Positions 17,939 to 41,566 of a stretch of DNA of 64,000 nt are shown here, in pieces. The notes under the pieces were generated by a model. That model did not search any database and was not told the origin of the DNA. It saw nothing but the letters and a program-made list of their open reading frames with translations. Every line of letters starts with the position of its first letter. The first letter of the stretch is position 1. Source of the stretch: Calditrichia bacterium (GTDB lineage Bacteria > Calditrichota > Calditrichia > RBG-13-44-9 > J075); the NCBI GenBank assembly GCA_020635015.1, contig JACKAP010000011.1, positions 39,025-103,024 on the forward strand, read 5' to 3'. A program made the translations under genes and the position numbers.

Positions 17939-19069
17939 TTATTGGCGGTGGTTCAGCAGGTTGTGCCGGCGAAGAATTTCCTTCACTTTCTCATGGGGTA
18001 ATGCTTTGATATCTCCGCGGTGGCCGCGCATATCTTCCGCCGCAAACAAGGAATGGTAGATCGCTTCCTCAGTCGCTTCCGCGGCTGCTAAAAAGAGGGG
18101 AGATAGATGATCGTCGCGGAGAATCTTTCTGGAAACTGTGCTGGCATCCGATTGATAGGGGTATCGAAGGTCCGGCGTGGTGGAAAAAGCAATCACATAA
18201 TCACCGCTGCCATGGGTGGAGACGCCTCCGGCTTTCACCAGGCCGTAGAGCGCCCGCCGGGCCAGGCGCTTGAGTTGGCGGGCATCCAGCGGGGCATCGG
18301 TCGCCACGATGATCATGCAGGAGCCGTCATGGATTGCTTCAAGGGTTTCGCGCAGGTAGTATTGCTGCAGTTCCTGTCCGACCGGCGCGCCGTTGATCTG
18401 CAGGATCCCGCCAAAATTGGTCTGCACCAGCACTCCCACGGTATACCCTCCCAACTTGTCGGGCAGTTGTCGTGAGGCAGTGCCGATCCCGCCCTTGAAA
18501 CCGAAACAGATCGTACCGGTGCCGGCGCCGACATTGCCCTCCGAAACCGGCCCTCCGGCCGCAGCTTGCAGTGCCTGCAGCACATGTGTTTCCTTCACGT
18601 AGCCGGCGCGGATGTTGTTGAGATAGCCGTCGTTGGTCTCTCCCACCAGCGGATTGACCGAACGAACCGCCTCGTTTCCGGGTAGATTCAGGGTATAATC
18701 GATCAGCGCTTTGGCGGCGACCGGCACGCTGAGTGTATTGGTGAGAACGATCGGCGTCTCCAGATTTCCCAATTCTTCTATCTGGGTCGATCCGGCCAAC
18801 TTGCCGAAACCATTGGCGACATAGATTGCAGCGGGCACTTTTTCCTGGAAAATGTTACCCGGGTGAGGCACAATCGCGGTGACGCCGGTGCGGCAATCAT
18901 TTCCTTCGATCAGGGTGACCTGCCCCACGGTCACCCCGGCCACATCGGTGATGCTGTTGAGCGGCCCCGGCGGCAGCACTCCGGTCTTCAGTTGCCGCCA
19001 CCAGGGTGCTCCCCCCTGGGCATTCACAACAATCGACATAATTAATACCAACCAAATACATTTAGCCAC
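17939..19069 (-). CDS. P1-family peptidase (DmpA / L-aminopeptidase D-esterase-like, S58)
   Basis: Part of ORF 17939..19246. It shows GPLNSITDVAGVTVGQVTL, GETNDGYLNNIRAGYV and GAGTGTICFGFKGGIGTASR. The long ORF overlaps nhaC and reads through a repeat element. I propose GTG 19069, which gives the signal-like AKCIWLVLIMSIVVNAQG. ATG 19039 is an alternative. Confidence 0.75.
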   Translation of the reverse strand: MAKCIWLVLIMSIVVNAQGGAPWWRQLKTGVLPPGPLNSITDVAGVTVGQVTLIEGNDCRTGVTAIVPHPGNIFQEKVPAAIYVANGFGKLAGSTQIEELGNLETPIVLTNTLSVPVAAKALIDYTLNLPGNEAVRSVNPLVGETNDGYLNNIRAGYVKETHVLQALQAAAGGPVSEGNVGAGTGTICFGFKGGIGTASRQLPDKLGGYTVGVLVQTNFGGILQINGAPVGQELQQYYLRETLEAIHDGSCMIIVATDAPLDARQLKRLARRALYGLVKAGGVSTHGSGDYVIAFSTTPDLRYPYQSDASTVSRKILRDDHLSPLFLAAAEATEEAIYHSLFAAEDMRGHRGDIKALPHEKVKEILRRHNLLNHRQ

Positions 19070-19159
19070 GGATTCACACGGATTTACACTGATTCTGTTG
19101 TTTCCTGGGAACAAGATCATGCTTTCATCCGTGTTTCTCTGGTTAAATCCGTGGCTAAA
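19061..19159. repeat. TIR hairpin element of the CCACGGATT 9-mer type
   Basis: The left arm is tttagccacggattcacacggatttacactgatt. The right arm is catccgtgtttctctggttaaatccgtggctaaa. The right terminus plus flank, aaatccgtggctaaaattcaa, is almost identical to that of the copy at 23426-23519. Confidence 0.8.
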
Positions 19160-20823: not shown

Positions 20824-20990
20824 AAGTTTGTTCGCTGTCGCTCACGATGTTTGCTCGCAGTTGCTCGCGATATTCGTTCGCTGTCGCTCACGATGTTTGC
20901 TCGCAGTTGCTCGCGATATTTGTTCGCTGTCGCTCACGATGTTTGCTCGCAGTTGCTCGCGATATTTGTTCGCTGTCGCTCACGATGTTG
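20824..20990. repeat. About 3.5 copies of a 46-bp (2 x 23) higher-order repeat of the GATGTTTGCTCGC family
   Basis: The unit (gatatttgttcgctgtcgctcac gatgtttgctcgcagttgctcgc) is repeated. It gives rise to the spurious overlapping ORFs 20641-21340 in the track. Confidence 0.9.
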
Positions 20991-21018
20991 ATTTTAGATC
21001 CAATATCAATTACCTTTT

Positions 21019-21067
21019 CCCTTCGCCCTTCGCCCTTCGCCCTTCGCCCTTCGCCCTTCGCCCTTCG
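21019..21067. repeat. Perfect heptamer array (CCCTTCG) x7
   Basis: Counted by hand from 21019 to 21067. Confidence 0.95.
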
Positions 21068-21073
21068 CGCCTT

Positions 21074-21286
21074 TCATTCCGCACTCCGCATTCCGCACTC
21101 CGCATTCGCCTCATCCCTCACCCAGATCCGGCAGAATTTTACCCCGCTGCGGGAATTGATTTGAACATCCGGCGTGCCCGGTGGGATGTCCGAGCCGCAG
21201 ACCATGATCCGTTTGTAACCGTTGCAGCATTTATCGGCGTCGTTGGGCGATTTCCATACATGACGCTTGGTTCGGCAGAAGAACAT
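21074..21286 (-). CDS. Small cysteine-rich protein (70 aa), function unknown
   Basis: ORF MFFCRTKRHVWKSPNDADKCCNGYKRIMVCGSD... The ATG lies 2 nt after the stop of the upstream 4-TM gene (GTC TGA GC ATG), suggesting translational coupling. The C-terminal ~12 codons are encoded by a heptamer repeat, so the native end is uncertain. Confidence 0.4.
   Translation of the reverse strand: MFFCRTKRHVWKSPNDADKCCNGYKRIMVCGSDIPPGTPDVQINSRSGVKFCRIWVRDEANAECGMRSAE
21075..21109. repeat. Heptamers CATTCCG/CACTCCG x5 (reverse complement of the 4043-4091 array)
   Basis: The sequence is cattccg cactccg cattccg cactccg cattcgc. It overlaps the last codons of the small ORF 21074..21286. Confidence 0.9.
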
Positions 21287-22169: not shown

Positions 22170-23399
22170 ATGATCTCATTAGGCAAATTCGATCCGGGGA
22201 TTCCCCAGGAGGCGATCCGTAAGTATTTGGAGATAGTCAAGCAGTTGACCGGCTTTACCGGCAGTGATGATGCCGGCAAACTGCGCGGCGATCAGAATAA
22301 TGAAGTGGTCGCTTTCGAGCCGGTCACTCCGGATCAGAGCAAGGGCGAGCTGAGTGTGGCCGAGGTGCAGGGCGTGCTGAAGAATGCCGGCTTCTTCCCC
22401 TTTGGGCAGATCGACGGGATCTGCGGCTACCGCACCACCGCGGCGATCCGTTTTTTCCAGGAGTATGTGCGTACGGTGGAGAAAGATGAAAGCATCGGAA
22501 GCCCGGACGGGATGCTGGGACCGAAAGCCTTTGGCCACATCCGCCGCTGGCGCGACGGCGGCAAGAAAGCCGACTGGGTCGGCGCCGCCAGCGAGCGCCA
22601 TCAGCAGGGGATCGCGCTGCTCAACGCCGTCAAGCAGCGCTGCCTGCAGAGCCCCAACCGCATGCTCCAGATGGTCAATGCCTATAGCGGTAAAGCCGAT
22701 ACCCTGAAAGTGGCGGAGTGGGATTTCAACCCCGACCACATCCACCTGATCGGCATCCGCAAGAATACCCCGGACAGCGAGGGGAAATTCAACGACGTGT
22801 TCTTTCTGCTGATCCGCGGGCTGGTCTATGCCTTCAACGGCTCCACCGATCCCGGCGCCACCTCCGATCCCCGCGGTTTTCCTTTCCTGACCAACGGGCA
22901 ACATCTTTACCGTTTCGGCTGGCACGGATTTAAACATAAGGACCGGATCTATCAGGCGCTGAAACCCCGGGCGCATGGGGTGCTGGTGGTGCGCTCGAAA
23001 AACCGCATCTTAGACGACAGCGACCTGGCCAGCGGCCTGGAGGCCAACGGCAGCATTAACGTGCACTGGGGCGGGGAAGGCTTCAGCGCCGATATCGGCA
23101 CCTGGTCGGAAGGCTGCCAGGTGATTACCGGCAAGGCCTATATCAATCACAAAAACGAGCTGGTCGACCTCGCGAAATACGCCGCAGTTAACTCCGGCGG
23201 GCTGGGAAAATATGTCAATGGAAACTACCAGACCAAAGGAGCCTATACGGTGCTTTCCGATGTGGTGGCAGCCCTCTCCGGCAGTGAAAACATCGTACGA
23301 TATATGCTGCTGACCGAGGAAGACCTGGCGATGAGTCCCGAGGTGGTGGGCATGGTGGAGGGAGCACGCAAGATGTTTGCCGGCATCCGCTGGGCTTAG
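22170..23399 (+). CDS. Peptidoglycan-binding (PG_binding_1-like) domain protein with a C-terminal His...Cys motif resembling YkuD-fold L,D-transpeptidases; no visible signal peptide
   Basis: ORF of 409 aa. LSVAEVQGVLKNAGFFPFGQIDGICGYRTTAAIRFFQEYV fits the PG_binding_1 pattern. INVHWGGEGFSADIGTWSEGCQVITG has a His-to-Cys spacing of 17 residues, like HG...SxGC(I/V)R. GGAG lies upstream of the ATG. Confidence 0.7.
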   Translation: MISLGKFDPGIPQEAIRKYLEIVKQLTGFTGSDDAGKLRGDQNNEVVAFEPVTPDQSKGELSVAEVQGVLKNAGFFPFGQIDGICGYRTTAAIRFFQEYVRTVEKDESIGSPDGMLGPKAFGHIRRWRDGGKKADWVGAASERHQQGIALLNAVKQRCLQSPNRMLQMVNAYSGKADTLKVAEWDFNPDHIHLIGIRKNTPDSEGKFNDVFFLLIRGLVYAFNGSTDPGATSDPRGFPFLTNGQHLYRFGWHGFKHKDRIYQALKPRAHGVLVVRSKNRILDDSDLASGLEANGSINVHWGGEGFSADIGTWSEGCQVITGKAYINHKNELVDLAKYAAVNSGGLGKYVNGNYQTKGAYTVLSDVVAALSGSENIVRYMLLTEEDLAMSPEVVGMVEGARKMFAGIRWA

Positions 23400-23425
23400 G
23401 ATGATTTTGGAGAGAATTTACTGAT

Positions 23426-23519
23426 TTGGCCACGGATTTTCACAGATAAACACGGATTAAAACCTTTTTATTGTTAATAAACGAAAAATCCGTGAGAATC
23501 CGTGTAAATCCGTGGCTAA
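23426..23519. repeat. TIR hairpin element of the CCACGGATT 9-mer type
   Basis: The left arm is ttggccacggattttcacagataaacacggatt. The reverse complement of the right arm is ttagccacggatttacacggattctcacggatt. It occupies most of the gap between the PG-binding gene and the caspase gene. Confidence 0.85.
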
Positions 23520-23539
23520 AAATTCAATTGGAGAACCGG

Positions 23540-26500
23540 ATGCCGGAACGAAAACCTACTCCCCAATTCCCCTTCGAGCGCAGCTTTGCCTTTATTGTGG
23601 GGATCGATGATTACGACCAGCAAGGCGACGCCCCGCCGCTGCAAACCGCGGTGAGCGACGCCCGCGCCCTGGCCCGGGTGCTGAAGCAGAAGCCCCATGA
23701 ATTTTCGGTGACCCTGCTGGAAAATCCCAACGGCGCGCAGCTGCGCGAGTTGCTGGATGTGACGATCCCGGAATTGAACATCGGGGCAAGCGACCGGGTG
23801 CTGTTCTACTTCGCCGGTCACGGCATCGCTGATGACGCCGAGGGCCGCCCGGAGGGCTACCTGCTGCCCGCCGACGCCCGGCTGGATGCGGTGGATTCGT
23901 TCCTGCCGATGAAGCGCCTCTACGAAGCGCTGCGCCCCCTGGAATGCCCCCACCTGCTGCTGGTGCTCGATTGCTGCTTTGCCGGGGCCTTCCGCTGGGC
24001 CACCAAAGAACGCGCCGCCCGCCCGCGGGTGCCCCAGCGCATCACCGAATACCGCCTGCGCCGCTTCTGCGAGGACCACGCCTGGCAGGTGATCACCTCC
24101 ACTTCCTACTATCAGAAAGCGCAGGATGTCTCCAGCCTGAAGACCCGCGCCCTGGGCAAGCGCGAGCAACTGCTGCAGGCCAAAACCGACGGCGCCGCCG
24201 AACACTCGCCCTTCGCCAAAGCCCTGCTGGAAGGCCTGGCCGGGCTGGCTGACGCCCGGGTGGGGGAACGGGGCGACGGGGTGATCACCGGCAGCGAGCT
24301 CTACAGCTTTATCCGCGACCGGATCTCGGAAGACGCCGCGCCAGGAAGCGGGGGCGAGGCCCAGAAACCGAATCATATCTTCCTGGAAAAGGATAAGGGC
24401 GGGGAATTCATCTTCCTGCATCCCAAACATCCCCTTAATCCATTGCCCGATGTGGAGCGAAATCCCTACAAAGGCCTGGCCTCCTACGATGAGAGCGACC
24501 AGGAGCTGTTCTTCGGCCGCTCGGCAGCGATTGAAAAACTGCAGCAACTGGCGGCGCAGCAACAGTTCTTGGTGATCAGCGGGGTCTCCGGCAGCGGCAA
24601 GTCTTCCCTGATCAAGGCCGGGCTGCTGCCGGAACTGCGCGAGGCCGGCTGGCGCATCCTGCCGGTGCTGCGCCCGGGGGCCCATCCGCTGCGCTCCCTG
24701 GGAAAAAGGTTTCGGGAGTGGCAGGTTTTCTCTCTGAGTGAAGCTTCCCTGGCAGCGCTGGATAAGGAGGAACTTCCGGAAGATGCGCTGGCAAATTTAC
24801 AGGCAATCGTGGGACAGGAAGCGGTAGGCGAACACGCCTTCGCCCTGCTGCTGAAGCAGGCGCTGGCGGATGTGCGCGGGATGCCGCTCTGCCTCAGCAC
24901 CGCAGCGCATCGGGCGCTCCAAAGCGCCGGAATTTCCCCCAATCTGCTGGAAAAGCTGACCGGTTTGATCGATCGCCGCTTTGCCCAGGAAGCGGATTTC
25001 TGGTCGGCGGTAAGTGAAGCGACCGGAAAGCAGCCGGAGCGGGAGGACCAGTTGATCATCCTGGCCTACGCCGCCGCCGGGCTGGTCTGGCAGCATGCCG
25101 AAGCAGCGCCGCTTTTCCCGGCCCTCTCATCACTAAATCCGCAAAACCTGTCGCCGCTGTTGAATGAGCTGAAGCAGCAGAAAACCGTTTTGCTGATCGA
25201 TCAATATGAAGAGTTGATTACCCGCTGCCAGGATAAGCAGGAGCGCCAGCAGTACGAGGAACTTCTGCAAGCCCTGCTTGAAGGCACCGCCAGCGATGAC
25301 TTCAAGCTAATCCTCACCGTGCGGGCCGATTTCGAGCCGCTGCTGGACAAAGGGCCGCTGGAGGATGCCTGGGAGGCGGGGCGCTTCCTGGTGACGGCGC
25401 TTTCTCCCGATGAATTGAAGGAAGTGATCGAGATGCCCGCCTACCAGGAGGTGCTGGATTTCGAGCCGGGTCTGGTGGAGGAGATCGTCAACGAGGTCAG
25501 CCAATCGCCCGGTGCCCTGCCGCTGCTCTCCTACACCCTGAGCCAGCTTTACGAAGCCTTCCGCGCTCGCCCGGCCAAAGGAGGCCAGCGCACCCTCAGC
25601 CGGGCGGATTACGAGGCCCTGGGCAAGGTGCGCGGCGCCCTGAGCAGCGGGGCCGACCGCCTCTATCGCCAGCTCGACGCGCCCCATCAGGCCACCTTGA
25701 AGAAGATCATGCTGCGCCTGGTCTCTCTGGAAGGGGGCGAGCCGGCCAGCCGGCGGGCGCTGCTGGAGGAGCTGGAATATCCCGATGACGCCGAAAATCT
25801 CCGGGTGGCGCACATCCTGGAACAGTTCCTGGAGGCGCGCCTGCTGGTGCGGGGCCGCGACAGCAGCGGCGAGGTCTACGTGGAGCCGGCCCACGATGCT
25901 CTGGTGAAAGCCTGGCAGACCTTGAGCGACTGGATCGAGGCCGACGGCCAGGACACCATCCTGCTGCAGCGCCGCCTCAGCCGGGCGGTGCGGGAGTATC
26001 ACCATCCCACCCTGCCGGTGGAAGCGCAGCAGGACGAAAAGCAGTTGCGCGACTATCGCAAGCGCTCTCTCTGGAACGACAATCCCCGCCTGGCCCAACT
26101 GGTGGAGATCCAGCGCAGCAAAGATCCTAATGACAACTGGCTCAACCGCCAGGAGCTGGATTTCGTGACCGAGAGCGACAACCGCAAGAAGTTCCGCAGC
26201 CGGGTGCTGCGTGCCACCGTGATCGCGGTGCTGGCGCTCCTGACCGTCCTGTCGGTGTGGGCGCTGCTGAAGTCGGCGGAAGCGCTGGACAACTCCCGCA
26301 AGAATCTCGCCAGCAGCCTCGCCGCTAATGCCCGCCTGACCCTCTCCGAAGACCGCACCCGCGCCATCCGTCTGGCCCAGGCCGCCTACGCCATCCCGGA
26401 GGCGGAGCCGGGCAGTAGGGCGATTGCCGCCAAGGTGATGAGCGAGGCGATGCTGCCGTTCCAGCAAGCGCAGCAGCCGTTTTATGCCGCCCGTCTGAAA

Positions 26501-29467
26501 TATGTGAATTATATAAGCCAGGTTCGATTTTCTCCCGACGGAGGGATACTGGTGTTTGCCGGACGCGGGCATCGTACGGAAAATGTGCAAATGGCGGCGC
26601 TTTGGAATATTCACCGTCAGGCGTTGTCGGAAATGATTTTATCCAAGTATGATAATACCAATTTTGTTTTTTCGAAGGATGATACGAAACTGTTGAGCCT
26701 TGACGGCAAAATCCGCGACCTGAAAGGCCGCATTGAATTTGACCCCTTCCGTTTTTACCTCGCCAACATTTTCGGAAGCGCGGACAACCAGGTAGAATAT
26801 TCGGATATCATCGATCCTTTCGATTTCGAGTGCGGTATCTCGCCGGCAAGGGACCTTTTGCTGACATATTACCGGGAAGCCAGAGATGACACCGTGGTGC
26901 GGATCTGGAACCTGCAGGGAGAACCAGTGGCCGATTTGCCCCATGCGGAAGGGATCGCCTTTGCGACCTTCTCTCCGGATGGGCGGGCGGTATTGACCCG
27001 GGGAGAAGACGATTATCGTAGCGGCCTGCTACGGGTGTGGGATTTGCAGGGCCGCCCGGCCGACAGTCTTCTGCGTTTCCAACTGTATCGAGAGGATGAA
27101 TACCGAAGCGACATGGCGGTAATGAAAGGGGTCAGCATATCGCCGGACCGCCGGCGCACCCTGGTTTGGGTGGATGATACGCTACGCCTGGTGCAGTCCT
27201 GGATACCCCTGCGCATGAAAGACCTGACCTCGGAAGCAGATTATCGGCTGTTTTCCCCTGCCGGCGGGATCATCCTGACCGCCGCCGACAGCAGCGCCCA
27301 ATTATGGGACAGCACCGGCATGAAGCTGGCGTCACTGAAACATCCGGCGCCGATCGATTCCCTGCTGTTTTCTCCTGACGGCGCAACCATCCTGGTGGTG
27401 AGCGATAGCGCCTGCCGCTTCTGGGATGTGCAGGGAAATCCACGCAGTCCGCTGATGACGCCCGATTCCGCCCTGAAATCACTCCATTTCTTCCCGGACG
27501 GAAAGCGGGTTCTGGCGCGATTCGAGCGTGACGTGCAACTATGGAATATCGCCGGTCAAGTCGTGTTGGACGGCCTTCAACCGGCAGATTCCTCCACCCA
27601 GGCAGCAGCAGATCCGCAGTTGGCCCAGCCGGAGGCGCCAACGAGCAAAGCAGCCTTCGATGAAATATTCAATTCCTCCATGACAGAGCCCGATTCCATT
27701 TCGACTGCCACTGCCACTGCCACTGCCACTGCCACTGCCACTGCCACTGCTACTATGCCACCGACCCCGCTCCTGCCTCGCATAAACCAGGCCCGTATCC
27801 TCCCCGGCGGCGACCGTTTCCTGACCATCAGCGACAGCACCGCCCAAATCTGGGACCTGCAGGGCAGGCCGCTCGGCGCGCAAATGACCCACCGGGAATT
27901 TGACTCCGATGGCCCGTCGGTATTTATCTCACCCGGGGGAGACCGGATCATTACCGTGGAGATCCGGCAGGGACTCAATCGCGCCGCCCTGGCCGAGCTC
28001 CCCGCTGAACTGAAGGAAAATCTGCCGGTCGACAGCCGGGTATCGGTCGACCGCCAGACCCTTCACGGCCGTTACGAGCTGTGGGACCGGAACGGTCAAC
28101 GGCTGGCGCTGTTGTATGACGGCTGGGTCAGCGAGAGAATTGCGCGCTACGAGGGGAACAAAATCATTTTTTTCCCGGATGGAGAAAGGTTCCTCACGAT
28201 AGCCCCGGATCATACCGTTTATATGTGGGACTTGCAGCCGGAGGAACTGGCTACTTTCTACCGGGAGGGCGAATCGCCTTTCGGGACGTACGACCGGGCG
28301 GTGCTCTCCCCCGACGGGCGGAAGCTGGCGACTCTCACGGAAGCGCGCCTCGAGCGGGAGCTGAAGATCTGGGATACGGTTAATGGAGAACTGCTGGCAC
28401 AACGGCGCCTGGCCTTCGATTTTCCGGATTTTGCTCAGCCTTCAACCATCTATATGAAAGGCCCGGACTACTTCGGGTTTGATGCCGGCGGCGGGCATGT
28501 CCTGGTGACCGGGTATTTTTTTGCAGACCAACACTATATGCTAAAAGGCGTTCAAGCCGACAATGTTTTGAACCTGGAAGGAGAACCGGTATGGCGCGAT
28601 ACCAGCAACCAAGATGGCCTGATCGGAACCGCTTCTCCGCCGGCAATCTCTCCTGACGGCGCTAAGTTGTTCCGGGTACTGCCTGAGAAAATGCCGGAGA
28701 TCATCGATTTGGCCGGGGAAACTGCGCCGGTCAAATTTGCTTTGAAACGCGATACGACCCGGTTTGATCGCAGTGAGTTCCAGGCCGCCTGTGTTTCGGA
28801 TGATTTTACCCGGGTGTTGACCGCAATGGAAATGGCTGACGGTGATCTTAAGGTCATATTATGGTCGGGAGAAACCGGCGATTCTCTCCGTGCCTACTCG
28901 CTCGGCCTGGCGTTGAAAGCCGTCGAACGCATCTGTTTCCTGCCCGACGGCGAGCATTTTCTGACGGTGTATCACGATTCTACTGTGATCAAGCTTTGGG
29001 ATCTGAAAGGCAAACACCTGGCCAATCTTTCCGGGCATAGCGGCCAGATCCGCGCCCTGATCTTCTCCCCGGATCAAACCCGGCTGCTCAGCGCCTCGCT
29101 GGACGGCAGCGCCCGGCTGTGGGATCTGCAGGGGCGGCCGCTGGCCGTGATGCCGATGGGCGGCGCGGTAACCGCCGCAACTTTCTCCCCGGACGGGCGG
29201 ACGATCCTGACCGCCTCGCAGCTCGATCCCGGCCGAACTCTGGCCGCTGGCAACAACCTGGCAATCTTATGGGATCTCCACGGCAATCGTTTGAGCGAGA
29301 TCCAAACTCTCAATCCCAATGCGGTGGTCTTTTCCCACGACAGCAAATATATCTTCACCGCAGAAGGCAAGCGCTATTGGACGCCGGATGCGATCAACGA
29401 ATGGCTGCAGGATGCCCCGGTGTATAATTTCAGCCCGGAGGAGCGGGCGGGGTTGGGGATAGATTAG
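23540..29467 (+). CDS. Giant multidomain protein: caspase-like C14 peptidase - STAND P-loop NTPase - single TM helix - two WD40-like beta-propellers
   Basis: Part of ORF 23471..29467; I set the start at ATG 23540 (GGAGAA upstream). The caspase dyad is YFAGHGIADD / LLLVLDCCFAGAF. The NTPase shows NPYKGLASYDESDQELFFGR, Walker A GVSGSGKSS and Walker B LLIDQYEEL. The TM helix is ATVIAVLALLTVLSVWALL. There are many (F/I)SPDG...(L/I)WD(L/V)QG blades, ending in the canonical LSGHSGQIRALIFSPDQTRLLSASLDGSARLWDLQG. Confidence 0.9.
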   Translation: MPERKPTPQFPFERSFAFIVGIDDYDQQGDAPPLQTAVSDARALARVLKQKPHEFSVTLLENPNGAQLRELLDVTIPELNIGASDRVLFYFAGHGIADDAEGRPEGYLLPADARLDAVDSFLPMKRLYEALRPLECPHLLLVLDCCFAGAFRWATKERAARPRVPQRITEYRLRRFCEDHAWQVITSTSYYQKAQDVSSLKTRALGKREQLLQAKTDGAAEHSPFAKALLEGLAGLADARVGERGDGVITGSELYSFIRDRISEDAAPGSGGEAQKPNHIFLEKDKGGEFIFLHPKHPLNPLPDVERNPYKGLASYDESDQELFFGRSAAIEKLQQLAAQQQFLVISGVSGSGKSSLIKAGLLPELREAGWRILPVLRPGAHPLRSLGKRFREWQVFSLSEASLAALDKEELPEDALANLQAIVGQEAVGEHAFALLLKQALADVRGMPLCLSTAAHRALQSAGISPNLLEKLTGLIDRRFAQEADFWSAVSEATGKQPEREDQLIILAYAAAGLVWQHAEAAPLFPALSSLNPQNLSPLLNELKQQKTVLLIDQYEELITRCQDKQERQQYEELLQALLEGTASDDFKLILTVRADFEPLLDKGPLEDAWEAGRFLVTALSPDELKEVIEMPAYQEVLDFEPGLVEEIVNEVSQSPGALPLLSYTLSQLYEAFRARPAKGGQRTLSRADYEALGKVRGALSSGADRLYRQLDAPHQATLKKIMLRLVSLEGGEPASRRALLEELEYPDDAENLRVAHILEQFLEARLLVRGRDSSGEVYVEPAHDALVKAWQTLSDWIEADGQDTILLQRRLSRAVREYHHPTLPVEAQQDEKQLRDYRKRSLWNDNPRLAQLVEIQRSKDPNDNWLNRQELDFVTESDNRKKFRSRVLRATVIAVLALLTVLSVWALLKSAEALDNSRKNLASSLAANARLTLSEDRTRAIRLAQAAYAIPEAEPGSRAIAAKVMSEAMLPFQQAQQPFYAARLKYVNYISQVRFSPDGGILVFAGRGHRTENVQMAALWNIHRQALSEMILSKYDNTNFVFSKDDTKLLSLDGKIRDLKGRIEFDPFRFYLANIFGSADNQVEYSDIIDPFDFECGISPARDLLLTYYREARDDTVVRIWNLQGEPVADLPHAEGIAFATFSPDGRAVLTRGEDDYRSGLLRVWDLQGRPADSLLRFQLYREDEYRSDMAVMKGVSISPDRRRTLVWVDDTLRLVQSWIPLRMKDLTSEADYRLFSPAGGIILTAADSSAQLWDSTGMKLASLKHPAPIDSLLFSPDGATILVVSDSACRFWDVQGNPRSPLMTPDSALKSLHFFPDGKRVLARFERDVQLWNIAGQVVLDGLQPADSSTQAAADPQLAQPEAPTSKAAFDEIFNSSMTEPDSISTATATATATATATATATMPPTPLLPRINQARILPGGDRFLTISDSTAQIWDLQGRPLGAQMTHREFDSDGPSVFISPGGDRIITVEIRQGLNRAALAELPAELKENLPVDSRVSVDRQTLHGRYELWDRNGQRLALLYDGWVSERIARYEGNKIIFFPDGERFLTIAPDHTVYMWDLQPEELATFYREGESPFGTYDRAVLSPDGRKLATLTEARLERELKIWDTVNGELLAQRRLAFDFPDFAQPSTIYMKGPDYFGFDAGGGHVLVTGYFFADQHYMLKGVQADNVLNLEGEPVWRDTSNQDGLIGTASPPAISPDGAKLFRVLPEKMPEIIDLAGETAPVKFALKRDTTRFDRSEFQAACVSDDFTRVLTAMEMADGDLKVILWSGETGDSLRAYSLGLALKAVERICFLPDGEHFLTVYHDSTVIKLWDLKGKHLANLSGHSGQIRALIFSPDQTRLLSASLDGSARLWDLQGRPLAVMPMGGAVTAATFSPDGRTILTASQLDPGRTLAAGNNLAILWDLHGNRLSEIQTLNPNAVVFSHDSKYIFTAEGKRYWTPDAINEWLQDAPVYNFSPEERAGLGID
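27704..27754 (+). repeat. In-frame hexanucleotide microsatellite (ACTGCC)x7 + ACTGCT + ACT encoding a (Thr-Ala)n linker
   Basis: Counted by hand. It lies inside the giant ORF between the two propeller regions. The opposite-strand frames give the (Ser-Gly)n and (Val-Ala)n artefacts seen in the ORF track. Confidence 0.95.
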
Positions 29468-29478
29468 AGGGTGCTTAG

Positions 29479-29552
29479 CGCCTCCTTTGCATTAAAAACA
29501 GCTACTGAAAACCGCAAAGGGCGCAAAGGAGGCGCAGAGAACCGCAGAGAAG
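29479..29552. repeat. Left flanking hairpin/arm of the GxxExxY unit (GCGCAAAGG / CCGCAGAGA 9-10-mers)
   Basis: gcgcctcctttgc (29479-29491) pairs with gcaaaggaggcgc (about 29523-29535). The arm ccgcaaagggcgcaaaggaggcgcagag is the reverse complement of the right-flank sequence at 29946-29982. The direct repeat ggcgcagagaaccgcagagaa is also present at 30013-30035. Confidence 0.85.
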
Positions 29553-29562
29553 GAAATGAAAA

Positions 29563-29940
29563 ATGGATGAAAATCGAATATCACAGGAAGTTCTCGGGGC
29601 TGCAATCGAGGTTCATAGAATATTAGGCCCCGGACTTTTAGAATCGGCTTATGAAACAAGTCTGGAGAGGGAGTTGCAGATTCGGGAATTGAACGTGCAG
29701 CGACAGGTGGGACTCCCGCTGATTTATAAGGATATAAAATGTGATATGGGTTATCGAGTCGATCTCTTGGTTGAAAATCGTGTTATCGTCGAAATAAAAT
29801 CGGTTGATGCATTAAATGATATTCATGTCGCACAGGTTTTGACCTATTTGAAACTGAGTAATCTCAAATTGGGTTTACTTCTCAATTTCAATGTTACGCT
29901 TTTGAAAAACGGAATCAAAAGATTGGTAAATAAACTCTAA
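29563..29940 (+). CDS. GxxExxY protein (PD-(D/E)XK nuclease superfamily, TIGR04256-like)
   Basis: ORF of 125 aa with GPGLLESAYE (the GxxExxY signature), RVDLLVENRVIVEIKS (a D...E.K nuclease core) and AQVLTYLKLSNLKLGLLLNF. Confidence 0.9.
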   Translation: MDENRISQEVLGAAIEVHRILGPGLLESAYETSLERELQIRELNVQRQVGLPLIYKDIKCDMGYRVDLLVENRVIVEIKSVDALNDIHVAQVLTYLKLSNLKLGLLLNFNVTLLKNGIKRLVNKL

Positions 29941-29945
29941 AAAAA

Positions 29946-30035
29946 CTCTGCGCCCTTTGCGCCTCCTTCGCGCCCTTTGCGGTAAAAAAGCAGAACCGCA
30001 AGTTCGCAAAGTAGGCGCAGAGAACCGCAGAGAAC
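29946..30035. repeat. Right flanking hairpin/arm of the GxxExxY unit
   Basis: ctctgcgccctttgcgcctccttcgcgccctttgcgg (29946-29982) is followed by cgcaaagtaggcgcagagaaccgcagagaa. The region is self-complementary and also complementary to the left flank. Confidence 0.85.
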
Positions 30036-30244: not shown

Positions 30245-30309
30245 TTGTCCACGGATTACACGGATTAACACTGATGTTCAAAATCAGTGTTAATCCGTGT
30301 AATCCGTGG
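30245..30309. repeat. Compact perfect hairpin of the CCACGGATT 9-mer type
   Basis: The sequence is ttgt ccacggattacacggattaacactgat gttcaaa atcagtgttaatccgtgtaatccgtgg, a 27-bp perfect stem with a 7-nt loop. The arms are nearly identical to the termini of the 140-bp element at 41427-41566. Confidence 0.95.
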
Positions 30310-32145: not shown

Positions 32146-33408
32146 TTAATGTACTTCCAGGGCCATCAGCGATAGATCATCGGCAAAATCGCTATGCCCA
32201 TGCCACTCCTCCAGGCTGGCCAGGATGTTAACCAGGCTCTCCCGTAGAGAAACGTCGCGGGAGCGCTCGATTTCCTGCATCAACCGTTCCCGGCCAAAAT
32301 GTTCGAAATCTGCATTACGTGCCTCGACAACCCCGTCGGTATACATGTAGAGGCGGTCGCCGGGATGCAGTTTGATGCAATGCTGCTTATAAGACGGATG
32401 GTCGACGAAACCGATCGGGTAGGCCGGAAATTGCAGCGCCTTGCCCTGGCGGGCCCGGGGCAATAGCATCGGCCCGGGATGCCCGGCCACGCTGAAGCAG
32501 AATTCGCGCTGAACCGTATCGAGGATCCCGTAGAGAATGGTAAAATATTGCAAGGTGTGGGAGCTCATCGGAAAACGGGCGTTGAGCTTTTCCACTACTT
32601 CCCGGGGCGTAGACAGGGAAAATTCGCCGCTGCCGTTGGCCGCCGGCTTGTAAAGCGAAGAGTGTGCCGGCAGCGGGGAAAGCCAGTGGTTGAGGGTCAC
32701 CGAGAGCAGCGCCGCCGGCACTCCGTGTCCGCTGACGTCTAAAATATAGATACCGTAATGGGTCTCATCGAGTGAAACGATGTTCAGGGTATCGCCGGCC
32801 AGTTCGCTGCAGGGGCGCAGGGTCCAATAAATTTCGATGCCCTCGATCGCCGGCACCTGGCGGGGCAGCAGGGCCTGCTGAATATTCGCCGCCGTTTCCA
32901 GGTCGCGCGTCATGCGGCGATTGACCGTCTCCAACTGCTCTTTGGCCCGGGCCAGGGCCTCTTCGGCGCGCTTGCGCTCGCTGATGTCCGATTGAATCCC
33001 GATAAAATGCGTCACCTTATTGTCGGCATCGCGCACCGGAGTGATGGTCAGGCGGTTCCAGAAGGCGCTGCCATCCTTGCGGTAATTGAGGATGTCTACC
33101 GTGCACTCCCGTTCTTCAGCGATGGCGCTACGGATCTCGGCCACGGTCTGGGGATCGGTATCCGGTCCCTGGAGAAAGCGGCAGTTGTAGCCGATAATCT
33201 CCGCGTCGCTATAGCCGGTCAAACGCTTGAATCCCTCGTTGGCAAAAATGATCGGGTTGTCCGGGAGTGAAACATCGGTGATCGTAATACCTTCCGAGGT
33301 AGCGGCCAGGGCGCGGTTTTTCAGGGCTAACTCATCGGCCAGGCGTTCCCATTCGCTCTGTTCTTCCGGGGAAGGGGGTATTAGCGGCGAAATATGCTTG
33401 GGATCCAT
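32146..33408 (-). CDS. LOV-domain (FMN, blue-light) sensor fused to a PP2C/SpoIIE-type serine phosphatase
   Basis: ORF of 420 aa. The LOV core reads ITITDVSLPDNPIIFANEGFKRLTGYSDAEIIGYNCRFLQGPDTDPQTV, including the photoactive-cysteine motif NCRFLQG. A coiled linker follows, then SpoIIE/PP2C motifs (AGDTLNIV, YILDVSGHGVPAALL, LYMYTDGVVEA). Confidence 0.88.
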   Translation of the reverse strand: MDPKHISPLIPPSPEEQSEWERLADELALKNRALAATSEGITITDVSLPDNPIIFANEGFKRLTGYSDAEIIGYNCRFLQGPDTDPQTVAEIRSAIAEERECTVDILNYRKDGSAFWNRLTITPVRDADNKVTHFIGIQSDISERKRAEEALARAKEQLETVNRRMTRDLETAANIQQALLPRQVPAIEGIEIYWTLRPCSELAGDTLNIVSLDETHYGIYILDVSGHGVPAALLSVTLNHWLSPLPAHSSLYKPAANGSGEFSLSTPREVVEKLNARFPMSSHTLQYFTILYGILDTVQREFCFSVAGHPGPMLLPRARQGKALQFPAYPIGFVDHPSYKQHCIKLHPGDRLYMYTDGVVEARNADFEHFGRERLMQEIERSRDVSLRESLVNILASLEEWHGHSDFADDLSLMALEVH

Positions 33409-41426: not shown

Positions 41427-41566
41427 TTGTCCACGGATTACACGGATTGACACGGATGGATTGATGGTGCGAATGATTCGGGAGTTCTTGGAAATAGGTA
41501 TAAAAAGTTTATCTTTTATTTCCGGAACAGAACAAATCAATCAGTGTTAATCCGTGTAATCCGTGG
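41427..41566. repeat. MITE-like 140-bp element of the CCACGGATT 9-mer type
   Basis: The left end is ttgtccacggattacacggattgacacggat. The right end is atcagtgttaatccgtgtaatccgtgg. The termini are nearly identical to the compact hairpin at 30245-30309 but enclose an ~85-bp AT-rich interior. Confidence 0.9.

Follow-up and report, generated by a model that had tools for sequence, protein, structure and literature searches.

A caspase-nSTAND1-WD40 protein of a Calditrichia bacterium with a predicted membrane-spanning helix, a candidate outside-in caspase switch

The window analysed here is a 64,000-nucleotide stretch of contig JACKAP010000011.1 from a Calditrichia bacterium, and the subject is the gene at 23540..29467 on its + strand (stop codon included), which encodes a 1,975-residue protein made up of a caspase domain, an nSTAND1 NTPase, a transmembrane (TM) helix and a WD40 array. 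The protein is probably a STAND-type (NLR-like) receptor that crosses the membrane once. By analogy with better known proteins it may act as an outside-in caspase switch, gated by nucleoside triphosphate (NTP) and with growth arrest or cell death as its output, a reading that we favour with moderate confidence. The domain identities and the intact catalytic residues are settled by sequence and profile evidence. The four-part architecture had been proposed in an earlier note on this DNA and was found to be correct, as Peptidase_C14, nSTAND1 and WD40 all matched above their Pfam thresholds and one hydrophobic helix was present. When motif positions were recomputed, every motif claimed in that note was recovered within a few bases. 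The protein is a further, somewhat elaborated member of a large sequence-described family and not a new kind of system.

The list of open reading frames gave a single uninterrupted + strand frame at 23471..29467, and translation from the ATG at 23540 gave the 1,975 residues, with an N-terminus that lines up with the N-termini of homologues in an alignment. The G+C content of the bin 24001-26000, the caspase- and NTPase-coding part, was 64% compared with about 54-58% in the surrounding 2-kb bins. This may reflect amino-acid composition or foreign origin; it is suggestive of the latter and not decisive.

The C14 caspase-like protease domain occupies residues ~9-305 (23564..24454, + strand), as judged from PF00656, a family hidden Markov model (HMM) and invariant residues. 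Pfam placed Peptidase_C14 (PF00656) at residues 15-156 with an E value of 4e-14 and 53.2 bits against a cut-off of 21.4, the family HMM gave 340 bits on the domain and the PADLOC 'caspase' model matched the protein with an E value of 1e-11. The YFAGHG motif starts at nucleotide 23807, with the catalytic His94 at 23819-23821, and the LDCCFAG motif starts at 23966, with Cys146 at 23975-23977 and Cys145 adjoining. An intact His/Cys dyad had been claimed and is borne out by the alignment of YFAGH94G and LDC145C146FAG with the homologues; H94, D144, C145 and C146 were invariant among 18 aligned relatives. By analogy with the D-x-C-H-x-G motif of metacaspases, we take C146 rather than C145 to be the nucleophile. 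Nothing in the sequence points to inactivity of the protease or of the NTP switch that follows it, and proteolysis itself is a prediction.

The nSTAND1 domain is split in two. Pfam nSTAND1 (PF20703) matched with an E value of 2e-96 and 324.6 bits (cut-off 27.1) in two stretches that between them account for most of the 379 model positions. Of the two, the better covers model positions 59-373 and residues 482-822, and the break between the stretches falls at an insert. The family HMM matched residues 304-404 and 534-888 and left ~130 residues between them without a match. The first part (residues 304-404, 24449..24751, + strand; first domain of the family HMM) contains the NPYKGL motif and the Walker A motif GVSGSGKSS at residues 348-356 (24581-24607). 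The second part, with a helical or winged-helix-like region (residues 534-888, 25139..26203, + strand; second domain of the family HMM, 407 bits), contains the Walker B motif LLIDQYEEL at residues 551-559 (25190-25216), the motif EPAHDALVKAW, of which EPAHDALV starts at 25883, and a conserved LWNDNPRL...WLN..E..F motif directly before the membrane helix. Residues G351, G353, K354, S355, D554 and E557 were invariant in the 18 aligned relatives.

The spacing of the Walker motifs had been described as long for this class. This was confirmed: 200 residues separate the Walker A Lys from the Walker B Asp, the longest distance in 107 family members (median 74), and the next-longest spacings, 141-142, belong to the closest relatives, P0001 and P0002. 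The extra length is due to an insert at residues ~405-533 (24752..25138, + strand; homologue alignment and Walker spacing) which contains two ~55-residue helical repeat copies with a consensus of roughly F.L(S/T)..SL..L....(I/L)P..(I/L)L..L..L....F..E..F...L, ending in LIL.HA. The insert gave no match in a Pfam scan, and when 1.84 billion representative proteins were searched exhaustively with HMMER only eight relatives came up, one of which, P0361, is a 604-residue fragment from another data set that is 99% identical to the window protein. Proteins P0363 (about 8 copies) and P0366 (3 copies) are built of tandem copies of the repeat, and in the alignment P0001 and P0002 share it in part. Judged by these comparisons the two helical repeats of the insert, about 125-165 residues in all, are a lineage-specific gain, and the insert probably serves as an extra regulatory or interaction surface. 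The occurrences suggest that the ~55-residue repeat is a mobile repeat module. In another homologue, P0038, the STAND module has the repeat at another position. P0363 and P0366 show a marginal similarity to DUF2795, and the insert stays without a Pfam name.

The single TM helix, ATVIAVLALLTVLSVWALL, lies at residues 892-910 (26213-26269, + strand) and is preceded by the flank NRKKFRSRVLR. Its Kyte-Doolittle mean over 19 residues is 2.54 and the next peak in the protein reaches 1.37, in agreement with the single helix of the earlier note, with no other peak above 1.4. An equivalent helix was found in 106 of the 120 best homologues, in nearly all of them ~360-500 residues past Walker A. The hydrophobic core has a median length of 21 residues in the family, and a LWNxNPRL...WFNxxExxF motif and a basic stretch are conserved ahead of it. 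Lysine and arginine residues were counted in 15 residues on each side of the helix for 107 helix-bearing proteins, the window protein included. The mean count was 5.8 on the N side versus 2.6 on the C side, the N side exceeded the C side in 102 of the 107 and the window protein itself has 6 and 3. Such positive-inside flanks are expected of a signal anchor with N-in/C-out orientation. As the N-terminal part of the window protein lacks a signal peptide and depends on NTP from the cytoplasm, the propellers are predicted to be extracytoplasmic. The placement of the protease and NTPase in the cytoplasm, with the whole propeller array outside the cytoplasmic membrane, had been suggested before, and the family-wide helix and its flanks, through hydropathy and charge, argue strongly for it. 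The outside compartment would be the periplasm of an FCB-group (Fibrobacterota-Chlorobiota-Bacteroidota) bacterium.

Past the helix, ~1,050 residues of degenerate WD40/PD40-like blades bearing an SPDG signature are divided by a (Thr-Ala)n linker. When the whole protein was scanned with Pfam, WD40 gave an E value of 2e-32 and 110 bits with its best stretch at residues 1824-1862, PD40 gave 31.8 bits against a cut-off of 20.9 and an eIF2A-type propeller match was also above threshold. WD40 was above threshold in residues 985-1345 and 1769-1944 and weak (20 bits) in residues 1411-1770; the sub-region 985-1345 alone gave 56.5 bits for WD40 and 33 bits for PD40. Residues ~960-1975 aligned throughout with the WD40 arrays of homologues, in several registers and with about 25% identity. 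The earlier impression that few blades are canonical agrees with the Pfam matches, in which canonical-looking WD40 repeats occur only at residues ~1790-1920, the last three or four blades, and at ~1263-1340.

An AlphaFold2 model of residues 911-1975, made from a 26-sequence alignment, had a mean predicted local distance difference test score (pLDDT) of 65.7. The juxtamembrane segment at residues 911-985 (26270..26494, + strand), predicted to be extracytoplasmic, was modelled as helices at model residues 3-65 with low pLDDT and aligned with the equivalent region of homologues. Confident beta-sheet regions followed at residues 1095-1343 (pLDDT 70-92), 1415-1625 (moderate pLDDT) and 1700-1950 (pLDDT 77-96). 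The first propeller region (residues ~987-1344, 26498..27571, + strand; Pfam, AlphaFold2 and a blade HMM) has ~6-8 WD40/PD40-like blades, the first two uncertain, and the second (residues ~1411-1955, 27770..29404, + strand; Pfam, AlphaFold2, Foldseek and the blade HMM) has ~9-11, the blades being counted from strands and the blade HMM. The low-complexity linker between them (residues 1345-1410, 27572..27769, + strand; tandem repeat finder and pLDDT) was of low confidence over residues 1344-1413, with pLDDT below 50 at model residues 434-503. It is encoded by an in-frame (ACTGCC)x8.5 hexanucleotide repeat, located at 27704-27754 by the tandem repeat finder. This repeat is a plausible spot for in-frame changes in ectodomain length by slippage. 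The top match of the model in the PDB, using Foldseek, was a Nostoc 14-blade double propeller (2ymu_A, E value 8e-33), followed by tandem-propeller Utp proteins and Apaf-1 (3sfz, 3shf). The array had been described as two propellers. The division into two regions by the (Thr-Ala)n linker stands, but the second region is larger than one propeller. With ~9-11 blades in this segment and about 15-19 in the whole array, 'double' may understate the number of propellers.

The best relatives of residues 911-1975 are kinase-nSTAND1-TM-WD40 proteins (P0241-P0244, P0247), with 27-29% identity over 62-72% of the query. Among the 120 best ectodomain relatives the commonest class was Ser/Thr kinase-TM-WD40, with kinase-nSTAND1-TM-WD40 as a smaller class. 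A strong hydrophobic helix was present in 103 of these 120 proteins, and in both of these typed architectures the array lies C-terminal to the helix. Some relatives have an XRE-HTH output on the nSTAND1-TM-WD40 chassis. As typed from their domains, these proteins indicate that the membrane-spanning STAND chassis is used with kinase as well as caspase outputs. The kinase-TM-WD40 relatives and the PD40 matches, PD40 being a TolB-type periplasmic repeat, agree with the predicted extracytoplasmic placement of the sensor.

A search of 5.8 billion clustered proteins with the window protein, in which at most 8,000 candidates were scored, gave at least 2,263 matches at an E value below 1e-10, the best of them with only 36-37% identity. 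Named matches were 'caspase family protein' or 'nSTAND1 domain-containing NTPase' from Nostoc, Moorena, Microcoleus, Scytonema, Fischerella, Lewinella and others, and the homologues are mostly cyanobacterial. The membrane-spanning layout is not unusual: it is the default among the at least 2,263 homologues, and its topology was proposed earlier for cyanobacterial orthocaspases (PMC7475262). The layout is neither new nor rare and has been described before from sequence. The earlier remark that no characterised member was known stands, since no experimental study of a TM caspase-nSTAND1-WD40 protein was found in the literature searched.

The closest relatives are found in a recurrent gene cluster (loci L001, L002, L088-L090, L092-L103) with the order C14-DUF7379 caspase, one to three C14-nSTAND1-TM-WD40 genes, a trypsin-like 523-residue protein and CHAT-nSTAND1-WD40. 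The C14-DUF7379 gene encodes an alpha/beta-hydrolase-like caspase and the CHAT-nSTAND1-WD40 gene is often present, as are toxin-antitoxin pairs nearby. The trypsin-like protein, whose gene comes next after the closest relatives, has a signal-peptide-like N-terminus, in agreement with an extracytoplasmic sensor. The additional caspase, CHAT-nSTAND1 and toxin-antitoxin genes give these clusters the context of a conflict system. Neither the C14-DUF7379 gene nor the 523-residue trypsin-like gene is present in the window, which also contains no other caspase or STAND gene, and the arrangement there could be a reduced version of the relatives' caspase cluster.

The mechanism that we favour would begin with the binding of a ligand to the periplasmic propellers and relief of autoinhibition. 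A conformational signal would then travel via the single helix, the nSTAND1 modules would take up NTP and form oligomers within the membrane plane, and the clustered caspase domains would be activated by proximity. Active caspases would cleave cytoplasmic targets, leading to growth arrest or cell death, an outcome of possible use in abortive infection or in programmed cell death that protects kin. For the oligomerisation, the kind of ligand and the lethality we argue from two sources, the parallel with Apaf-1 and the Avs-type STANDs and the conflict-type clusters in which relatives are found.

Several observations weigh against this mechanism. A role in death or defence is one that we infer from family context only, and the topology is read from hydropathy and charge bias. 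The AlphaFold2 confidence was low at residues 927-1094 and 1627-1697. No helix was found in 14 of the 120 best homologues, hence such propellers are evidently able to work in the cytoplasm too. The neighbours in the window are housekeeping genes (a TonB-dependent receptor, an S58 peptidase, a Na+/H+ antiporter, an SDR and a PAS-SpoIIE protein), and no PADLOC match was obtained for the three neighbouring genes scanned. Finally, the nSTAND1-TM-WD40 chassis with Ser/Thr kinase or XRE-HTH outputs would fit ordinary signalling equally well.

The main rival explanation is a non-lethal transmembrane signalling receptor, in which the propellers would sense an envelope, nutrient or cell-cell cue and the caspase would be a specific regulatory protease. 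We consider it possible though rather unlikely. It gains weight from the TM chassis, which in the best relatives of the sensor array holds Ser/Thr kinases and in some cases XRE-HTH, and from the position of the window copy among housekeeping genes without a PADLOC match to the three scanned neighbours; a PAS-SpoIIE phosphatase gene (32146-33408) is also nearby. In the clusters of the closest relatives, however, several genes of the caspase, CHAT-STAND and toxin-antitoxin kinds occur together, as is usual for conflict systems. Furthermore, those bacterial caspase-STAND fusions that have been characterised act as death switches against phage (PMC12642450), and nSTAND1 was defined in predicted counter-invader systems (PMC8195603).

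It could also be supposed that the gene is a decaying or inactive paralogue, with the degenerate blades, the NTPase insert and the linker arising from relaxed selection. Many blades have low scores with the WD40 profile, no family member has a longer Walker A-to-B spacing and two partner genes of the relatives, C14-DUF7379 and the 523-residue trypsin-like gene, are absent from the window. However, the 5.9-kb frame is uninterrupted, the catalytic and nucleotide-binding residues are all intact, the nearly identical fragment P0361 occurs in another data set and the insert is itself a structured repeat partly shared by P0001 and P0002, all of which makes decay very unlikely. That the whole protein is cytoplasmic and Apaf-1-like, its helix not spanning the membrane or its C-terminal part not exported, would fit the 14 helix-less proteins among the 120 best homologues and the cytosolic caspase-STAND-WD40 'bacterial Apaf-1' proteins that appear in passages of PMC13581612, but the hydropathy of the helix over its 19 residues, the 21-residue median core, the consistent positive-inside bias (102/107), the kinase-TM-WD40 relatives and the PD40-type repeats make this highly improbable.

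The gene immediately upstream (22170..23399, + strand) encodes a 409-residue protein, here called PGB-409, with a peptidoglycan-binding domain and an uncharacterised beta-rich domain, and it is considered as a possible partner only. PGB-409 has a weak PG_binding_1 match, a phrog_3000 match and no signal peptide. A search for homologues gave 677 matches; the family members are ~400 residues long, occur in 289 species genomes from many phyla and are conserved at 45-64% identity in KSB1, Acidobacteriota, Gemmatimonadota, Proteobacteria and Bacteroidota. His192, Asp209, His245, His252, His299 and Cys316 are invariant in the family, the last within the C-terminal motif WSxGCQV. An AlphaFold2 model of PGB-409 had a pLDDT of 89. 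Foldseek against the PDB found only a PG-binding/amidase match (4xxt, E value 6e-4) and no solved structural relative of the C-terminal domain, whose sole structural neighbour was one unnamed 196-residue viral protein in BFVD. A YkuD-type L,D-transpeptidase was suspected from HWGG...WSxGCQV and rejected, as no YkuD structures were returned by Foldseek from the PDB.

A survey for co-occurrence of homologues of the caspase gene with PGB-409 had been suggested. In a few close relatives a PGB-409 gene lies directly before a C14-DUF7379 caspase gene, which is of a different type, in loci L002, L003/L004, L007, L009 and L011, and two genes upstream of a CHAT-nSTAND1 gene in L005/L006. Out of 80 PGB-409 loci from species genomes, C14-DUF7379 adjoined in five (six with two metagenome contigs) and a STAND gene in one; unrelated housekeeping genes adjoined in the remainder. 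PGB-409 was found near none of the 80 metagenomic relatives of the window protein, within retrieved flanks of up to 10 kb. The family was not found in viral contigs, and the one match in phage genomes, to a crAss-like hypothetical protein, was weak. PGB-409 was therefore rejected as a general caspase partner, and co-occurrence narrows to the small clade closest to the window copy. A functional link between PGB-409 and the window caspase protein is possible but weakly supported. By an extension of the receptor scheme that we hold to be distinctly unlikely, the protein would be a bacterial 'extrinsic death receptor' sensing an extracytoplasmic cue, for instance phage adsorption or injection machinery, wall damage or a kin signal, and its caspase would license the neighbouring, cytoplasmic PGB-409 as a cell-wall effector. 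If this were true, PGB-409 would stand beside EACC1, Pepco and MBL as a new class of effector, one that acts on the cell wall after activation by a protease.

The gene content of the window is FCB-group-like, with proteins bearing type IX secretion system (T9SS) tails, SusC-like and CarboxypepD_reg TonB-dependent receptors, GlgX, gamma-glutamyltransferase and a PcrA-like helicase. Upstream of the caspase gene are an S58 peptidase gene, a Na+/H+ antiporter gene, short intergenic tandem repeats, a gene for a small membrane protein and then PGB-409. Downstream are a GxxExxY/PDDEXK_3 cassette, an SDR gene, a gene for a TspO-like protein and the PAS-SpoIIE phosphatase gene. The window contains no tRNA gene and no integrase-type domain was found among the scanned neighbour proteins. 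Together with the housekeeping flanks and the lack of a PADLOC match for the three neighbours, this leaves the idea of a genomic island around the caspase gene weak. The 'repeat arrays' suggested as one of its bounds were found to be the short intergenic tandem repeats only, at 20826-21107 between the antiporter and small membrane-protein genes, and comprise a 46-bp unit x3.5 (98% matches), CCCTTCG x7.7 and a 14-bp unit x2.4.

Other repeats were found closer to the gene. At 29511-29983 a 125-residue GxxExxY (PDDEXK_3, TIGR04256) gene lies inside 29-nucleotide inverted repeats which are 93% complementary and consist of CGCAAAGG/GCGCAGAG units; gene and repeats together look like a small self-contained cassette. 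The 140-bp spacer between PGB-409 and the caspase gene is filled by an imperfect palindrome (23425..23520) similar to repetitive extragenic palindromic (REP) elements, with 34-nucleotide arms that are 82% complementary. The motif AATCCGTG has 5 sites in the window compared with 0.01 expected, and REP-like elements made of AATCCGTG units are dispersed at 23425-23520, 30249-30309, 19067-19094 and 41539-41556. One such element, downstream of the GxxExxY cassette, is a 30-nucleotide hairpin that is 97% complementary.

The caspase-nSTAND1-TM-WD40 family has thousands of members known from sequence alone. The window leaves the existing inferences on the family unchanged and adds an example, an NTPase insert and a tentative peptidoglycan-binding neighbour. 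The example is non-cyanobacterial and single-copy, without the extra caspase and trypsin-like genes, and could be a cleaner test construct.

The nearest described proteins are the cyanobacterial orthocaspases with the order p20, AAA_16/NACHT, TM and WD40, for example Ava_0039, Ava_3079 and GEI7407_1667, for which a 2020 review proposed an extracellular WD40 sensor governing a cytoplasmic caspase (PMC7475262). The window protein has the same order of caspase, P-loop NTPase, one TM helix and WD40, and the topology and outside-in activation proposed for the two agree. The cyanobacterial members are direct homologues, with 27-30% identity overall and ~45-50% in the caspase and NTPase parts. The window protein differs in being encoded on a non-cyanobacterial, FCB-group-like chromosome and in having the repeat insert in its NTPase. 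Its ectodomain is also longer, with 1,065 residues past the TM helix compared with a family median of 718, and its blades are more degenerate than those of the cyanobacterial orthocaspases.

The NTPase resembles the nSTAND1 clade (PF20703), named within predicted counter-invader systems by Kaur et al. in 2021 (PMC8195603), in its NPYxGL lead-in, Walker A GxSGxGKSS, Walker B hhhDQxEE and EPAHDAL. The systems described there are mainly coupled through EAD/Death-like domains or to EACC1, whereas the effector of the window protein is fused directly, and profile scans of the neighbours found no EAD or EACC1 partner beside the gene. In the two-gene EACC1-caspase system a 5' gene for a small single-TM EACC1 protein accompanies an EACC1-type caspase (PMC7159879). 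Membership of this system was rejected, as the upstream gene here encodes a soluble 409-residue protein without an EACC1 match and NCBIfam caspase_w_EACC1 gave 65 bits at residues 16-263, under its cut-off of 140.

A protease fused to a STAND sensor is also found among the Avs-type anti-phage STANDs. A 2025 preprint on protease-effector modules counts 'transmembrane STAND ATPases' as one kind of sensor fused to proteases and describes KrAvs12, a soluble caspase-STAND protein that is triggered by a phage protein, cleaves EACC1 and requires its catalytic Cys (PMC12642450). KrAvs12 with EACC1 and SsAvs4 with Pepco resemble the window protein in that a protease, caspase-like or trypsin-like, is joined to a STAND sensor, and activation in the preprint's examples depends on the catalytic Cys. 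Unlike the window protein, the characterised Avs examples are soluble, and it is in the cytoplasm that their TPR-like sensors bind phage proteins. Their proteases cleave a dedicated upstream effector, whereas EACC1, Pepco, MBL and alpha/beta-hydrolase genes are not adjacent to the window gene. Membership of Avs (AVAST) itself was rejected, as the Avs4 models matched the P-loop only (residues 320-360, E values 0.015-0.018). The order of TM helix followed by propeller is shared with receptor Ser/Thr kinases that have a TM helix and extracytoplasmic WD40 repeats. The output of those receptors is a kinase rather than a caspase, and many of them have no STAND module.

Apaf-1-like proteins complete the comparison. 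The retrieved passages of a 2026 Nature paper describe bacterial Apaf-1-like caspase-STAND-WD40 proteins, some with a fused N-terminal caspase, and do not tie a TM helix to them (PMC13581612). As in the Apaf-1 apoptosome and, as far as those passages go, its bacterial counterparts, the window protein combines a WD40 sensor, a STAND module as the predicted oligomerisation switch and a caspase output. It differs from Apaf-1 in that its NTPase is nSTAND1 and that of Apaf-1 an AP-ATPase, in having no CARD adaptor step and in the TM helix that parts the switch from the sensor. Given the helix in this position, the ligand would have to be extracytoplasmic. If the outside-in model is true, the proteins of this family, with an extracellular or periplasmic sensor linked via an NLR-type switch to a caspase, would be the closest bacterial counterpart to a death receptor with an apoptosome fused to it.

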